Counted from the stretch's first letter, positions 2,985 to 9,039 are shown. The stretch is 64,000 nt of DNA from Escherichia coli (GCF_041886205.1 NZ_CP169029.1), one strand, 5' to 3'. Translations and numbers: made by a program. Notes: generated by a model not told the origin, from the sequence alone.

Positions 2985-4334
2985 ATGTCTGAAATTGTTG
3001 TCTCCAAATTTGGCGGTACCAGCGTAGCTGATTTTGACGCCATGAACCGCAGCGCTGATATTGTGCTTTCTGATGCCAACGTGCGTTTAGTAGTCCTCTC
3101 GGCTTCTGCTGGTATCACTAATCTGCTGGTCGCTTTAGCGGAAGGGCTGGAACCTGGCGAGCGATTCGAAAAACTCGACGCAATCCGCAATATCCAGTTT
3201 GCCATTCTGGAACGTCTGCGTTACCCGAACGTTATCCGTGAAGAGATTGAACGTCTGCTGGAGAACATTACTGTTCTGGCAGAAGCGGCGGCGCTGGCAA
3301 CGTCTCCGGCGCTGACAGATGAGCTGGTCAGCCACGGCGAGCTGATGTCGACCCTGCTGTTTGTCGAAATCCTGCGCGAACGCGATGTTCAGGCACAGTG
3401 GTTTGATGTACGTAAAGTGATGCGTACCAACGACCGATTTGGTCGTGCAGAGCCAGATGTAGCCGCGCTGGCGGAACTGGCCGCGCTGCAGCTGCTCCCA
3501 CGCCTCAATGAAGGCTTAGTGATCACCCAGGGATTTATCGGTAGCGAAAATAAAGGTCGTACAACGACGCTTGGCCGTGGAGGCAGCGATTATACGGCAG
3601 CCTTGCTGGCGGAGGCTTTACACGCATCTCGTGTTGATATCTGGACCGACGTCCCGGGCATCTACACCACCGATCCACGCGTGGTTTCCGCAGCAAAACG
3701 CATTGATGAAATCGCGTTTGCCGAAGCGGCAGAGATGGCAACTTTTGGTGCAAAAGTACTGCATCCGGCAACGTTGCTACCCGCAGTACGCAGCGATATC
3801 CCGGTCTTTGTCGGCTCCAGCAAAGACCCACGCGCAGGTGGTACGCTGGTGTGCAATAAAACTGAAAATCCGCCGCTGTTCCGCGCGCTGGCGCTTCGTC
3901 GCAATCAGACTCTGCTCACTTTGCACAGCCTGAATATGCTGCATTCTCGCGGCTTCCTCGCGGAAGTTTTCGGCATCCTCGCGCGGCATAACATTTCGGT
4001 AGACTTAATCACCACGTCAGAAGTGAGCGTGGCATTAACCCTTGATACCACCGGTTCAACCTCCACTGGCGATACGTTGCTGACGCAATCTCTGCTGATG
4101 GAGCTTTCCGCACTGTGCCGGGTGGAGGTGGAAGAAGGTCTGGCGCTGGTCGCGTTGATTGGCAATGACCTGTCAAAAGCCTGCGGCGTTGGCAAAGAGG
4201 TATTCGGCGTACTGGAACCGTTCAACATTCGCATGATTTGTTATGGCGCATCCAGCCATAACCTGTGCTTCCTGGTGCCCGGCGAAGATGCCGAGCAGGT
4301 GGTGCAGAAGCTGCATTTTAATTTGTTTGAGTAA
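2985..4334 (+). CDS. lysC: Lysine-sensitive aspartokinase III
   Basis: 449-aa ORF MSEIVVSKFGGTSVADFDAMNRSADIVLSD..., ATG at 2985. Confidence 0.97.
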   Translation: MSEIVVSKFGGTSVADFDAMNRSADIVLSDANVRLVVLSASAGITNLLVALAEGLEPGERFEKLDAIRNIQFAILERLRYPNVIREEIERLLENITVLAEAAALATSPALTDELVSHGELMSTLLFVEILRERDVQAQWFDVRKVMRTNDRFGRAEPDVAALAELAALQLLPRLNEGLVITQGFIGSENKGRTTTLGRGGSDYTAALLAEALHASRVDIWTDVPGIYTTDPRVVSAAKRIDEIAFAEAAEMATFGAKVLHPATLLPAVRSDIPVFVGSSKDPRAGGTLVCNKTENPPLFRALALRRNQTLLTLHSLNMLHSRGFLAEVFGILARHNISVDLITTSEVSVALTLDTTGSTSTGDTLLTQSLLMELSALCRVEVEEGLALVALIGNDLSKACGVGKEVFGVLEPFNIRMICYGASSHNLCFLVPGEDAEQVVQKLHFNLFE

Positions 4335-4478
4335 TATTTCCCTACTGGCGTATAACGCTCACCAATTGTTATACGCCATCCTCACTGAAAATATAGATTA
4401 AATAATATCTGAAAAATAAAATCACTCCTGTAGAACAGTATTATAATCACCGAAAAATATTATTTAACAGGAGTGTTA

Positions 4479-5405
4479 ATGGCTACTTTAATGGAAAAAG
4501 ATGCACTTTTAAATGGCACCAGTCAGTGCATCGCGTTTTTATCAAATATCGTTGATAATTGCTCAGTTTCGTCACGTCAGGATTCAGGCGATGATCTCAC
4601 ACGATTAGTCAGCTATCGCGATTATCTTTACTCTACCCCCGCTGAACTTGTTGATTTTACACAGGGAAAGAGTCACCTTCAGCAGATTAGAACTCAATAT
4701 CAGCATGAATTCAACAATACTACGCATTCAGAAAATAAAGCATCTTTTGATTCTATTTGGCAGCGTCTGACAAATCATGAAGTCACACCGCAACAGCATC
4801 CCATTGGTTTTGTTTTAGGTGGGCAACCCGGAGCAGGTAAATCATCTCTGATTGAATTAGCCAAAAGAGAGACAAAAGATAATATAATGATTATTAACGG
4901 TGATGATTTTCGATTTCTACACCCTGATTTTAATTATATCTACCAAAATTATGGGGATGATTTTGTTACCCATACAGCGAAATTTTCCGGCGAAACGGTC
5001 GAACGTGCAATTGAGAGAGCGATAGTCAGTAAACTCAACATTGTTGTCGAAGGAACATTTCGTAATGCCGCTACGCCGTTACAAACATTAAAAAAACTCA
5101 AAGATGCAGGCTACCAAACAGAAGTCATGATAAAAACAACCTCAGCGGCATTAAGCTGGGAAAGCACCAATGAACGGTATAATAAGGACAAAGAGGCGGG
5201 AAATATTGCCCGAAAAGTGGATAAAAACCACCATGATATCGTCACCGGTTTGCTGGCAGAAAATGCCCGCAAGGTGTTTGCTTCGAACCTGTCAGATAAG
5301 TTTGCGGTGTATTCGCGTGAGAAGATGATATTTAGTTCACAAGCGGCAACGAATGACGATATTGCAACGCTTATACAGAATGAAATCAGCGGGAATACAC
5401 AATAA
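4479..5405 (+). CDS. Zeta-toxin-family P-loop kinase with ~100-aa N-terminal extension (EzeT-like single-chain toxin-antitoxin candidate)
   Basis: ATG at 4479 preceded by AGGAG (4468-4472); the ORF track starts 2 codons earlier at a GTG (4473). Walker A GGQPGAGKS at 4818-4844 and GDDFR at 4899-4913, as in zeta/PezT UNAG kinases; gene is visibly AT-rich compared with its neighbours. Confidence 0.8.
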   Translation: MATLMEKDALLNGTSQCIAFLSNIVDNCSVSSRQDSGDDLTRLVSYRDYLYSTPAELVDFTQGKSHLQQIRTQYQHEFNNTTHSENKASFDSIWQRLTNHEVTPQQHPIGFVLGGQPGAGKSSLIELAKRETKDNIMIINGDDFRFLHPDFNYIYQNYGDDFVTHTAKFSGETVERAIERAIVSKLNIVVEGTFRNAATPLQTLKKLKDAGYQTEVMIKTTSAALSWESTNERYNKDKEAGNIARKVDKNHHDIVTGLLAENARKVFASNLSDKFAVYSREKMIFSSQAATNDDIATLIQNEISGNTQ

Positions 5406-5440
5406 TAATAAGAGCTGATGGCGTGAAATAACGCCGGGCA

Positions 5441-6241
5441 TCACGCCCGGCGCATTACCGTCTGGTACATTAAGCTATCCAGTTCCTTAACGTCCCCTTC
5501 TCTGCTATCCGGTAACAGCGGTGGAATTTCCCCACGCGCCAGTTCCGCACGAATAAACGCATGTAACAATGGACGGCGCGGACCATATTCCGCTTCTCCT
5601 GCGCGCTGTTTACGTCCCAGTAATTCGTCTATTTCTGCACGTAACGGCGCATCAAGTTCACTTCCCGCCAGTAGCTCAGCAAAGCGCATTGGCGGCACGC
5701 CTTTTCCCGCTTCGACCCAGCGCACGGCCAGCAGCGGACGCAGCACGTAAAAGTATTTTTTCAGTCGAACTTCATCGCCCTGCAAATATCCGCGGAAGTT
5801 TTTCTGCGCCATCGAATAGTAATGCCAGCGCGCACGCAGCGGAGAAAACCACATTGGGACCATTGCCTTAAGCGCCGTTATCGTTTCTTCATCTTGTTGA
5901 TAGACCACCGGAGAATCCAGCCATTCTATCAGCGTCGGGTTCGCGCCTTTCAATAATCCCAGCGCCTTACGCCACTCCCAACCGGAAACATCTAACTCGT
6001 CGTCGATGGGCAGCTCGATAACATCGCGCGGCGGCTCCACCCGCAGATACCATTCCAGCGGGTGAACATACAAAAACCGTACATCGTAGTCGCTGTCGGG
6101 CGAGGCAAACCCCCAGCCGCGGCTCCCGGATTCACAGGCATACAGCACTTTCACGCCGTAGCGCCGTTCTATTTCTTTTAACTGCTGCGATACCCGTTCG
6201 CGCATCGCAGCACTGACTCCATTTAATGGCATGTTACTCAC
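5441..6241 (-). CDS. Pol-beta-superfamily nucleotidyltransferase-fold protein of unknown specificity
   Basis: 266-aa ORF from a GTG at 6241 that overlaps the upstream SPFH stop; alternative in-frame ATG at 6232. Contains GS-x10-DYDV (coding 6083-6127), the classic hG[GS]...DhDh NTase signature, plus downstream acidic residues (IELPIDDELD). Confidence 0.75.
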   Translation of the reverse strand: MSNMPLNGVSAAMRERVSQQLKEIERRYGVKVLYACESGSRGWGFASPDSDYDVRFLYVHPLEWYLRVEPPRDVIELPIDDELDVSGWEWRKALGLLKGANPTLIEWLDSPVVYQQDEETITALKAMVPMWFSPLRARWHYYSMAQKNFRGYLQGDEVRLKKYFYVLRPLLAVRWVEAGKGVPPMRFAELLAGSELDAPLRAEIDELLGRKQRAGEAEYGPRRPLLHAFIRAELARGEIPPLLPDSREGDVKELDSLMYQTVMRRA

Positions 6242-7365
6242 CCTTTGATATTAACCAACCCATGCAGAACCTGATCCAGACCGCCAAATACAGAGATGTT
6301 ATCGATCCGCTCAGCCACTCTCTCCAGCGTTTCTAGCTCTTTTAAACGCAACGCTACCGGATTGTTCTCCATGACTTTGGCGGTGTTCAGTAACGAGCGC
6401 GTCGCTGCCGTTTCTTCACGTCGGCGAATCACATTCGCCTGCGCAGATTTCTCCGCCTCAACCAGCTGCGCAAGGATATTTTTCATATCGCCAGGCAGGA
6501 CGATATCTTTCACCCCTAATGAAGCAATCTCCATACCAAATGGCAACATGCGCGATTTCACCTGTTCGCTGACAACGTCATCAATGACCTGTTTATCTTC
6601 CAGCAGTTCATCCAGCGTACGAGTACCTACCGCTTCACGCAGGGCAAATTGCAATTCCCGATACAAATGATCAATCGGCTTCGTTAACTGACTAAATGCT
6701 AATAACACGTCGCTGTAGCGCCAGTTAGCCGCGAGGTTAATCCGCAGATTGACCTTATCTTTCGTTAAGATTTCTTGCCCGCTGACTTCCAGTACCTGCA
6801 AGCGGGTGTCAACCACTTCAGTTTCAACCAGATGGTTAATTTTCCAGTACGCGGTAAGCCCCGGCGGTAACAGCGCCTGCGTTTCACCATCGATTTTCAG
6901 CACGCCTACATGCCAGGCCGGAACCTGCACCGTCAGTATCGCATCGCGGCCTTTAACAACTCCTTTGCGCCGTGGCTGTAATACCGCATTCATCACCTCC
7001 GTTTGTACCGGGACTTGCTGCGTATTCATCCGCACCAGCGTCAAATCATCCTCTACACGCCAGTACAAACGACGCGTTGATGGCAGCAGGATCTCCAGCA
7101 AAATACCGTCCATATACAACGCCCCGGCTTCAGTCTCCGACAAGTCTGCCACCAGGCAATATTTCTCCACCCAATCAGGCTGAAAGCGGCGCAAATAGTC
7201 CGCCAGCACGTCGGGAACTTCGCTACCATCCAGCGTAATCAGCAACACTTCCGGGGTATTAAACCAGGGTAAAAAATGCTCGCCTGCATGTAGCACTTTG
7301 TAGTAATCGCCGTTTCTGGAGAGTAATGCCAGCTGATCTTTTCTTACGCTTATTTTTTTAATCAT
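6238..7365 (-). CDS. SPFH/band-7 (stomatin/prohibitin-like) domain protein with no predicted membrane anchor and a ~135-aa N-terminal domain of unknown function
   Basis: 375-aa ORF, ATG at 7363-7365 with AGGAA 7 nt upstream; SPFH hallmarks (PPGLTAYWK...TKDKVNLRINLAANWRY...GMEIASLGVKDIVLPGDMK) and C-terminal coiled-coil-like AEKSAQANVIRRREE...; no hydrophobic stretch of TM length seen by eye. Confidence 0.8.
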   Translation of the reverse strand: MIKKISVRKDQLALLSRNGDYYKVLHAGEHFLPWFNTPEVLLITLDGSEVPDVLADYLRRFQPDWVEKYCLVADLSETEAGALYMDGILLEILLPSTRRLYWRVEDDLTLVRMNTQQVPVQTEVMNAVLQPRRKGVVKGRDAILTVQVPAWHVGVLKIDGETQALLPPGLTAYWKINHLVETEVVDTRLQVLEVSGQEILTKDKVNLRINLAANWRYSDVLLAFSQLTKPIDHLYRELQFALREAVGTRTLDELLEDKQVIDDVVSEQVKSRMLPFGMEIASLGVKDIVLPGDMKNILAQLVEAEKSAQANVIRRREETAATRSLLNTAKVMENNPVALRLKELETLERVAERIDNISVFGGLDQVLHGLVNIKG

Positions 7366-7893
7366 TATCTATTCCTTGCTTAACAGCCGTCGCGGAAGCA
7401 GACACGAAGCGACAGGGGAATTCCCTTTTGCCTGTTACCCGGCGTCTTTATCGGCGACGTTATCGGGGATCGCTGACTGCGCAATCCCTCATTTTTTATT
7501 TAATAAGTTACAACCAGTATTCATTTCAGGAATGAATGTGGGAATCGAACCCATAATTGGCGTCAAAGGCTGACGGAACACGCCCGGAAAACAGCCTGAC
7601 CGTTCCTGGTGTGCCGACGGGGTTTAACCCCCTTTGAAATTCAGTTTCAACGCATAGGAGTTATTGCGAGAATCGTGCCAGAAGTAAAAAAAACACCTAA
7701 TCAAATGAAAAATAAAGATTTAATAAATTATTGTTTTTTATTGGGGGAAAACTTTTCGCTAAATTTGTATCTGTATTTATCATCAATTATCAAGAAAGAT
7801 AAATATTTCAGAAGAGAATAAAGGAATATTATCAGTTCTGCTTGCAAATGAATTCCCGTACACTGAATCCATCGGCTCACTGAGGGCACCATC

Positions 7894-8166
7894 ATGGCAC
7901 TCCCCCGTATTACCCAAAAAGAGATGACTGAACGCGAGCAGCGTGAACTTAAAACACTGCTGGATCGGGCGCGGATTGCGCATGGTCGCGTACTGACCAA
8001 CTCCGAAACCAACAGCATTAAGAAAGAGTACATCGATAAATTAATGGTTGAGCGTGAGGCTGAAGCAAAAAAAGCCCGCCAATTGAAGAAAAAGCAGGCT
8101 TATAAACCGGATCCTGAAGCGTCATTTAGCTGGTCAGCAAATACGTCGACGCGCGGCAGGCGCTGA
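7894..8166 (+). CDS. yjbD: YjbD (DUF3811 family small protein)
   Basis: 90-aa ORF MALPRITQKEMTEREQRELK..., convergent and abutting rluF as in E. coli. Confidence 0.85.
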   Translation: MALPRITQKEMTEREQRELKTLLDRARIAHGRVLTNSETNSIKKEYIDKLMVEREAEAKKARQLKKKQAYKPDPEASFSWSANTSTRGRR

Positions 8167-9039
8167 TTAGCGCCCCTTCTTTTTTCGCCCCGGCGAGGTA
8201 AAACGCTTACCGTTGGACGCCGGGCGACCGCCTTTTTCCGCCGTTTTTTCCATCTTAACGACTGGGCGTTTGATGCCCGCCGTTTTCGGTTTGGCCTTCG
8301 CTTTAGGTTTTGCCTCGGAAGAGGAATTTTCGATGAGTTTAAAGAGGTCGATTAACTCATCGTCAGTTAAATCGCGCCACTCACCCAGCGGAATGCCGCT
8401 TAAACTGACGTTCATAATGCGCGTACGTTCCAGCTTTTTCACTTCGTAACCAAAGTGCTCGCACATGCGACGGATCTGACGGTTCAGCCCCTGCACCAGG
8501 GTAATGCGGAAGACAAACGGCGCTTCTTTTTTGACTTTGCACTTTTTCGTCACCGTCCCGAGGATCGGCACTCCCGCCCCCATACCACGAATAAATTCAT
8601 CGGTAATCGGTTTATCGACCGTCACCAGATACTCTTTCTCATGATCGTTACCCGCACGGAGGATCTTATTCACCAGATCGCCGTGATTGGTGAGGAAAAT
8701 CAGCCCCTGGGAGTCTTTATCCAGGCGGCCAATCGGGAACACGCGTTTGCTGTGGTTAACGAAATCGACAATGTTATCGCGCTCGCCATCTTCGGTGGTG
8801 CTGACAATACCGACGGGCTTGTTCAGGGCGATAAGTACCAAATCTTCGGCTTCCCGAGGCTCAATCAACTGACCGTTTACTTTCACAACGTCGCCGGGTT
8901 TCACCTGATCGCCAATGGTGGCTCGCTTGCCATTAAGGAACACATTGCCTTGCTCGATATAGCGATCCGCTTCGCGGCGTGAGCAAATTCCGCTTTCGCT
9001 GATGTATTTATTTAAACGGACTGATGAGTCGGGCAGCAT
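8167..9039 (-). CDS. rluF: 23S rRNA pseudouridine synthase F
   Basis: 290-aa ORF with S4 domain N-terminus ([26 protein letters not shown]) and RsuA-type catalytic core, Lys/Ala/Pro-rich basic C-terminal tail. Confidence 0.93.

Follow-up and report, generated by a model that had tools for sequence, protein, structure and literature searches.

The T-arm-like motif that lies between the divergent slipin and yjbD genes in a stretch of Escherichia coli DNA (GCF_041886205.1, NZ_CP169029.1; 64,000 nucleotides, the whole of which is called the window below) is, as we conclude with high confidence from comparative sequence analysis, the most conserved hairpin of an RNA that is itself conserved and structured and that belongs to the slipin–RlaP operon. 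Slipin is a Band-7/SPFH protein. RlaP, named for 'RNA ligase-associating Pol-beta', is a nucleotidyltransferase of RNA-repair systems and is predicted to restore lost nucleotides prior to ligation (PMC7824862). The best overall explanation, which we consider reasonably probable, is that the motif is the T-arm of a conserved structured RNA located behind a sigma-54-type promoter, and that this RNA is a partner of repair proteins.

The preliminary description of this DNA placed TGGGAATCGAACCCA, the reverse complement of a T-arm, at 7539-7553 in a 528-bp interval between the starts of slipin (7365, minus strand) and yjbD (7894, plus strand), and both the interval and the motif are as it stated. 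The opposite strand contains the T-arm consensus GGGTTCGATTCCC, which reads on the minus strand, as the slipin–RlaP operon does, at 175-185 nt before the slipin ATG. Can such a short match mean anything? If one mismatch is allowed and the window alone is considered, the motif is indistinguishable from chance: the 11-mer GGTTCGATTCC has five matches with at most one mismatch in the window, of which four fall in real tRNA genes and just one lies elsewhere, compared with an expectation of 1.29 matches per window. For an exact 13-mer, hand arithmetic gives an expectation of about 0.002 in 128 kb. The motif is nevertheless more than a chance match, because it is conserved across species. Slipin-linked loci number at least 568. 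The comparison set consisted of slipin homologues of 80 species, whose proteins range from 98% down to 45% identity and which extend from Escherichia as far as the Burkholderiales, Methylococcaceae and Thiotrichaceae. About 50 of these 80 loci have GTTCGAWTC on the slipin strand at 180-420 nt before the gene, and none has it on the opposite strand. The T-loop and the two inner G-C pairs do not vary among 40 Enterobacterales sequences, the neighbouring spacers of which cannot be aligned, and one outer pair of the T-stem is GC in 25, AU in 13 and GU in 2 sequences. Covariation of this stem is also evident by eye, in forms such as auGGG/CCCac, ucgGG/CCcga, ccaGG/CCugg and guaGG/CCuac, and the T-arm forms in the minimum free energy (MFE) fold of domain 1 taken alone. 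The earlier suggestion that the motif is tRNA-related is upheld.

The T-arm is part of a leader (7385-7664) with a structure of about 290 nt, which extends from the promoter to the ribosome-binding site of slipin and is divided into domains 1 and 2 (Table 1). The promoter-to-T-arm segment was aligned by MAFFT without being fitted to any structure, and on this alignment, A1, RNAalifold predicted 25 pairs, 22 of which show compensatory changes. Hairpin H1, the long bulged hairpin and the T-arm are 95-96% paired on A1, as against 38-50% if the partners are slid. For the whole tested structure, 89.8% of the cells are paired, compared with 76% in column shuffles and 38-50% after sliding by 1-3 columns. 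The inner part of the helix that closes the domain is 83% paired and four of its five pairs change on both sides; in its outer extension, the alignment register differs between groups. Formation of this long-range helix, GCUGA with UCAGC, is probable. A local hairpin GUCA/UGAC at 7562-7574 was also considered as an anticodon-like arm, and was dropped since the long-range closing helix is better supported.

A covariance model built from A1, R1, has only one strong match in the window, which is domain 1 itself on the minus strand (101 bits, E 2e-30), and it has no match in the corresponding locus of K-12. R1 also finds sequences that were not used in building it: those of Pluralibacter (101 bits), Providencia stuartii (69 bits) and P. 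vermicola (52 bits) and, among betaproteobacteria, Caenimonas (46 bits) and a metagenome-assembled genome (40 bits). If 54 sequences are aligned by R1, 95.6% of the cells pair versus 75% in shuffles and 23 of the 25 pairs change on both sides, though this alignment is biased toward the structure by construction. G·U pairs are frequent in the predicted structure, which we read as fitting transcription of the minus strand. For domain 2, RNAalifold on 38 sequences predicted 22 pairs, 19 of them compensatory. The hairpin just 3' of the T-arm is limited to the group of Escherichia, Citrobacter, Klebsiella and Phytobacter, and, judged by eye, there is covariation in its stem (uucauu/aaugaa, uucac/gugaa, cucacc/ggugaa). 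Kosakonia, Mangrovibacter, Erwinia and others differ in that this 3' strand pairs upstream and makes an acceptor-like stem. No feature is annotated under the match in the 20 RefSeq records listed.

The leader is also under selection within E. coli. When the window strain was compared with strain O103:H2 12009, the leader differed at 5 of 280 positions (1.8%), domain 2 accounting for one difference in 142 positions, while the AT-rich spacer upstream of the promoter was the most variable segment (15 of 84, 18%) and third codon positions differed by 9.6% in slipin and 13.6% in RlaP. Thus, between these two strains the leader has changed 5-7 times less than third codon positions in the adjacent genes and about 10 times less than the spacer. 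Both open reading frames (ORFs) of the operon are intact, and the promoter and the enhancer-like repeats described below are kept. Given these differences in divergence, the leader RNA, its promoter and the repeats are maintained in E. coli by purifying selection.

Table 1. Features of the lysC–yjbD region, in coordinates of the window; structural and regulatory features are predicted.
Feature	Position	Strand	Description
lysC	2985-4334	+	gene call
zeta-toxin-family P-loop kinase gene	4473-5405	+	Pfam PF06414; convergent with slipin–RlaP operon; low-GC DNA
RlaP nucleotidyltransferase gene	5441-6241	-	Pfam PF10127, E 3e-95; start overlaps slipin stop codon
slipin (Band-7/SPFH) gene	6238-7365	-	Pfam PF01145 at residues 147-318; RefSeq annotation
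Shine-Dalgarno sequence AAGGA	7372-7376	-	of slipin; domain 2 ends about 12 nt before it
domain 2 of leader	7385-7526 (in a narrower definition 7385-7518)	-	hairpin 7466-7488 and multi-stem element
closure of domain 2 multi-stem element	7454-7459 with 7388-7393	-	CGUCGC with GCGACG
26-nt piece of domain 2	7432-7457		collinear 23/26 match in K-12 lysC–yjbD spacer
hairpin AUUCAUU-CCUGA-AAUGAAU	7519-7537	-	just 3' of T-arm; alignments and MFE fold
domain 1 of leader	7527-7664	-	H1, long bulged hairpin, T-arm and probable closing helix
T-arm-like hairpin UGGG-UUCGAUU-CCCA	7539-7553	-	4-bp stem and 7-nt T-loop; fifth pair is an A·C mismatch in this strain
closing helix, GCUGA/UCAGC type	about 7641-7645 with 7569-7573	-	probable
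long bulged hairpin CGGCACACC-A-GGAACGG…CUGuuUUCC-G-GGCGUGuuCCG	7574-7616	-	RNAalifold
hairpin H1	about 7619-7634	-	RNAalifold
sigma-54-type promoter TGGCACGATTCTCGCA (TGGCAC-N5-TCGCA)	7665-7680	-	-24 GG and -12 GC; directly 5' of domain 1
AT-rich spacer from enhancer-like repeats to promoter	7681-7764		contains degenerate IHF-like site
IHF-like site TTTCATTTGATTA	7698-7710	-	two mismatches to consensus
enhancer-like repeats TTTATCT-N5-GATAA-N14-AGATAC	7765-7806		homologous to block adjacent to rtcR in relatives
DNA immediately 5' of yjbD	7807-7893	+	common to K-12; presumed yjbD promoter region
yjbD	7894-8166	+	gene call

How would such an RNA be transcribed? Directly upstream of domain 1 there is a sequence, TGGCACGATTCTCGCA, with GG at -24, GC at -12 and the spacing of TGGCAC-N5-TTGCW, by which we define a sigma-54-type element. 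Of 79 loci, 60 have TGGCAC-N5-T[GC]GCA on the slipin strand at the corresponding place, and 4 have it on the opposite strand. From the usual spacing to such an element, transcription would start near 7655. An exact consensus for integration host factor (IHF) is present in 23 of 60 loci some 40 nt before the promoter, and E. coli has a degenerate IHF-like site in its AT-rich spacer. In Citrobacter, Klebsiella, Kosakonia, Phytobacter and others, the divergent gene encodes an RtcR-type activator, in which the RtcR/CARF domain (PF06956) is combined with a domain for interaction with sigma-54 (Sigma54_activat), and in Citrobacter, Klebsiella and others a block TTTATCC-N5-GATAA-N14-AGATAAAAAAA abuts the rtcR start codon. 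The homologous repeats of E. coli are therefore predicted to represent an upstream activating sequence of the RtcR type. The tract at 7680-7860 is strongly AT-rich, as had been noted (24.3% GC, compared with 51.9% for the whole window and 49% for 7366-7679). The preliminary description took it as the probable site of the promoters of both divergent units; its regulatory role for the slipin unit stands, although the slipin promoter appears not to be an AT-rich sigma-70 promoter inside the tract but the sigma-54-type element at its edge. Judged from these motifs, the tract is the enhancer and bending region of that promoter together with the DNA 5' of yjbD. For yjbD no promoter was located, as a scan of 7807-7893 for the sigma-70 consensus gave no match, nor did a scan of 7366-7893 find any terminator or sigma-70 consensus.

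An activator for this promoter may be available elsewhere in the genome. Canonical rtcR is found in 4843 of 5426 complete E. coli genomes, and the slipin-adjacent RtcR of K. michiganensis is 62% identical to the canonical RtcR of K-12, including the C-terminal region. Thus, activation of the E. coli slipin promoter in trans by canonical RtcR is plausible.

Several observations weigh against the explanation that we favour. The E. coli T-arm has only 4 bp and is not accompanied by an acceptor stem, a D arm or an anticodon arm. ARAGORN, a tRNA and tmRNA finder run on the window, made no call at the motif, and cmscan with Rfam 15 at E<=10 found neither tRNA (RF00005) nor any credible family in 4200-8300 and 7366-7700; the sole matches in the 4200-8300 scan were weak ones of snoRNA, miRNA and terminator-like families. 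The earlier statement that the motif is not a tRNA gene is therefore correct. Providencia vermicola and P. stuartii retain the 5' domain, but their T-loop is replaced by a hairpin CUGUUCC…GAACAG that is unrelated to it (L038 5688-5826 and L040 5667-5822), so that the T-loop is dispensable in some lineages. The folding energy is no better than that of shuffled sequences (z = -1.3 for the whole leader and -0.9 for domain 1). The dependence of the slipin promoter on sigma-54 is deduced from its motif, and its -12 element is TCGCA where TGGCA is the commoner form. Since, in addition, rtcR and rtcB are not linked to the operon in E. coli and the IHF-like site is degenerate, expression in E. coli is uncertain. 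Finally, the E. coli RNA has no terminator or evident processing site before the slipin coding region, which is explained by a cis-acting leader at least as easily as by a free RNA.

With these reservations, a scheme may be imagined for the RNA as a partner of repair proteins. An RtcR-type activator would bind the TTATC/GATAA repeats in the AT-rich tract and, helped by bending of the DNA by IHF, would fire the sigma-54-type promoter when RNA damage is sensed. In E. coli, it would be the canonical RtcR that acts, and it would have to do so in trans because the linked rtcR gene has been lost. The RNA, with its mimic of the tRNA elbow, might then be a scaffold, a cofactor or a model substrate for a ring of cytosolic slipin and for RlaP, in analogy to YrlA, which works with Ro in the rsr-yrlBA-rtcBA operon. 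By eye, the translated slipin has no hydrophobic hairpin at its N-terminus, and the protein is therefore probably cytosolic. We would put the probability that the RNA acts as a protein partner slightly below an even chance.

The most serious alternative is that the RNA is a purely cis-acting 5' leader, that is, a riboregulator or attenuator of the translation or stability of the slipin–rlaP mRNA, in which the T-loop is a module of tertiary structure. It has to be taken seriously because the E. coli form has no terminator-like site and no tRNA-type 3' end before the coding region. Moreover, the conserved structure begins at the promoter and runs unbroken until about 12 nt short of the Shine-Dalgarno sequence, and the acceptor stem and CCA-like end of the relatives have been lost in the E. 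coli group. On the other hand, the homologous element in distant species ends in CCA and abuts a cloverleaf gene, which suggests tRNA-type processing into free RNAs, and the same niche in the rsr-yrlBA-rtcBA operon is occupied by trans-acting Y RNAs. A purely cis-regulatory RNA is, in our estimate, possible and the less probable of the two. In another reading, which we regard as unlikely, a hitherto undescribed class of two-domain RNAs of about 290 nt, distributed from Enterobacterales to Burkholderiales, with the 5' domain and the T-loop minihelix as its ancient core and a cloverleaf b7a-tRNA as an optional part, would be a damage-responsive riboregulator. Such an RNA could, for example, be a decoy or reporter substrate for tRNA-targeting nucleases, and its cleavage and its repair by RtcB and RlaP would gate the slipin operon.

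It is also conceivable, with a small probability, that the element is an evolutionary relic in E. coli, which was functional when linked to rtcR and rtcB and is now decaying or silent. The Escherichia loci indeed lack both linked genes and have a degenerate IHF-like site, the whole unit is gone from about 69% of complete E. coli genomes, and the tRNA-like part is down to a 4-bp T-arm. However, decay is difficult to reconcile with the constraint on the leader relative to third codon positions and spacer, with the retention of promoter, repeats and both intact ORFs, or with a canonical RtcR that most genomes keep and that resembles the slipin-linked one.

The remaining alternatives concern the history of the locus. 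The gene order in the window is pgi (minus), lysC, the zeta-toxin-family kinase gene, RlaP, slipin, yjbD, rluF (minus), pepE (plus) and yjbB (minus), and the preliminary description spoke of an insertion here, with the motif as a possible mark of the island boundary. However, the order rluF–yjbD–(transporter)–rtcR–promoter–RNA–slipin–(rtcB)–rlaP–lysC is found at the same site in at least eight other enterobacterial genera, and the presence of the locus between lysC and yjbD is therefore ancestral. RtcB lies between slipin and RlaP in L016, the one of these loci that was checked by Pfam, and in many enterobacterial loci the space between the two genes is of corresponding size; rtcB is absent from the window locus. 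By comparison with these genera, Escherichia has evidently lost the linked rtcR, the transporter gene and rtcB, and has gained the low-GC kinase gene.

The state of K-12 is accordingly a derived one. Slipin-type intervals are found in 1640 of 5426 complete E. coli genomes (about 30%), and spacers of the K-12 type in 3757 (about 69%). Homology to K-12 stops at the stop codon of lysC and resumes at 7764, and the alignment of 7764-8167 has 93% identity overall. The lysC–yjbD spacer of K-12 (L003 5633-5884) has no sigma-54 promoter, RNA or slipin operon, and still carries the repeat block TTTATCT-N5-GATAA-N14-AGATAAAAAAA with identical spacing. The 26-nt piece of domain 2 that matches it collinearly has an E value of 2.6e-4 in a 4.2-kb comparison and a marginal one of 0.086 against all loci, and is possibly a relic of deletion. 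From the retained repeat block and this collinear match, together with the synteny, K-12 looks like a deletion derivative that has kept the enhancer repeats. The first 79 nt of the K-12 spacer after lysC, which include a different terminator hairpin, have no homology in any fetched locus.

This history leaves hardly any room for the suggestion that the motif is the 3'-end remnant of a tRNA used as an attachment (att) site at the edge of an island. In its favour, the motif equals the T-arm consensus, and K-12 lacks this DNA, including any match to R1. However, comparison of the junction with K-12 puts the breakpoint at 7763/7764, and the motif is about 210 bp inside it; the segment is not flanked by direct repeats that could be att sites, and Pfam shows no integrase family among the three island genes. 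In addition, the motif is oriented with the operon, is embedded in a covarying RNA structure and is conserved upstream of slipin in unrelated genomic contexts as well as in the lysC–yjbD synteny. Partial tRNA genes at the integration sites of islands resemble it as isolated T-arm-like sequences near strain-variable DNA, but they differ in the direct repeat, the integrase and the junction position, all of which are missing here, and the motif is selected as an RNA structure. The weakest reading, a chance match to the T-arm consensus, has practically no probability left in view of an invariant T-loop amid scrambled spacers and its restriction to one strand.

Some features of the surroundings are worth mentioning. 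The kinase region (4335-5440) has 31-44% GC, and among the fetched loci tblastn finds the kinase only in two of the Escherichia type (L004 and L005); the gene looks like a later acquisition beside the operon. In strain PT62, IS1 is inserted between lysC and the kinase gene. PADLOC models of defence systems gave no meaningful match to the island proteins. Where the kinase and RlaP genes converge, both strands can form a GC-rich hairpin GCGCCGGGC-GUGAU-GCCCGGCGU with a U-rich tail behind it (5424-5493); this hairpin is probably a bidirectional intrinsic terminator, and the weak Rfam matches to SorX and Hrs12 stem from it. Two small ORFs on the plus strand, 7376-7573 and 7609-7821, have no Pfam match and were discarded as coding sequences, since length changes in the alignment, as judged by eye, would break the frame. 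Third positions of yjbD differ by 26% between the window strain and O103:H2 12009, against 2% in lysC, 8% in rluF and 10% in slipin, which suggests a recombination boundary or an old allele. K-12 has an insert of 132 bp, probably a repetitive extragenic palindromic (REP)-type element, between the stop codons of rluF and yjbD (L003 5228-5359), where the two genes of the window abut (8166/8167).

The forms of the RNA in relatives make a series. In distant loci (L058, L075, L079 and L060), a full cloverleaf with assorted or odd anticodons, at the Rfam tRNA threshold or called by ARAGORN, stands directly upstream of slipin, and it is preceded by the element homologous to that of E. coli, namely a 5' hairpin domain and then an acceptor-plus-T minihelix with a CCA end. 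In Kosakonia, Mangrovibacter, Erwinia and others, the minihelix is retained and ends in ACC. The Escherichia, Citrobacter and Klebsiella group has lost the 5' acceptor strand, and the 3' strand re-pairs with a new downstream partner; in the two Providencia species, the T-loop is lost altogether. Judged from this series, the E. coli element is a reduced variant within it, and neither a cloverleaf nor a b7a-tRNA proper. In Gilliamella (L045, L049 and L052, about 5640-5725), the only T-arm upstream of slipin is that of a full cloverleaf, which ends in ACC, is called tRNA-Pro (AGG or CGG) by ARAGORN and is found some 200 nt downstream of the sigma-54 promoter; there, alignment of the 5' domain to R1 is poor (17-23 bits). 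In betaproteobacterial relatives, arrays of 7-20 tRNA genes immediately precede the structured RNA and slipin and share their strand (L069 1911-5311; L071 3863-5457; L073 1691-5721; L066 557-973 and 3226-3368). In Caenimonas koreensis (L069), for example, an array of 12 tRNA genes is followed in turn by RtcB, the structured RNA, a cloverleaf tRNA-like gene and slipin. Such arrays could be a back-up set of tRNAs in physical linkage with an RNA-repair operon.

RNA repair by the Rtc system is widespread, and its substrates and cofactors are unclear. To our knowledge, no RNA partners have been studied other than the Y RNAs of operons that contain Ro, and their Band-7-linked counterpart has hitherto been a purely computational prediction; it has no Rfam match. 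A compact version of it, maintained by purifying selection, is present in about 30% of complete E. coli genomes, Shiga toxin-producing strains such as O103:H2 12009 among them, and the K-12 alleles that naturally lack the element at the same site make a tractable system for the functions of the RNA, slipin and RlaP. The apparent inserted island is better read as the remnant of an ancestral enterobacterial locus of the rtc type.

How does this element compare with systems already known? The rtcBA promoter of K-12 has the same kind of element (TGGCAC-N5-TTGCA), AT-rich DNA upstream, TATCC…CGATAT repeats beside the rtcR start and an activator of the same family, RtcR. Unlike the leader described here, that of rtcB has about 45 nt and, by the model, contains no R1-type RNA; in the window, in turn, the activator gene is no longer adjacent. 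RtcR senses 5' tRNA halves with cyclic-phosphate ends and controls the rsr-yrlBA-rtcBA operon (PMC7790460). In this operon, YrlA is likewise a non-coding RNA inside a sigma-54- and RtcR-controlled RNA-repair operon and has a tRNA-like domain with a T-arm; its partner is the ring-shaped scaffold Ro, the place of which would be taken here by slipin. According to secondary accounts, Burroughs and Aravind proposed Y RNAs as ligation cofactors (bioRxiv 10.1101/312249; PMC7790460). YrlA differs in that it sits between genes, whereas the RNA described here stands at the 5' end as an mRNA leader. The interval 7366-7700 has no match of any kind in Rfam at E<=10, and the four genes annotated from lysC to rluF (zeta-toxin family, RlaP, slipin and yjbD) include no match to a Ro/TROVE family. 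The closest known relative is the b7a-tRNA, a tRNA-like RNA next to Band-7 and RtcB genes which, as a later preprint reports, was predicted by Burroughs and Aravind in 2016, is said to resemble authentic tRNA strongly and was unvalidated as of 2018 (bioRxiv 10.1101/312249). Like it, the E. coli element has a Band-7 neighbour on the same strand, domain 1 lying 162 nt upstream of slipin as part of 54 loci that are alike in this respect, and it stands in an RNA-repair neighbourhood, with RlaP in the window and RtcB (L016) and RtcR in other genera. The distant relatives, with a cloverleaf directly upstream of slipin, fit that secondary description as well. In E. coli, however, likeness to tRNA is restricted to the short T-arm that the tRNA searches passed over, and the conserved core differs from the b7a-tRNA, as far as this description allows comparison, in being made of a 5' hairpin domain, a T-arm minihelix and a second domain. 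The element is thus of a kind that had already been predicted, in a reduced form, and is not a categorically new one.

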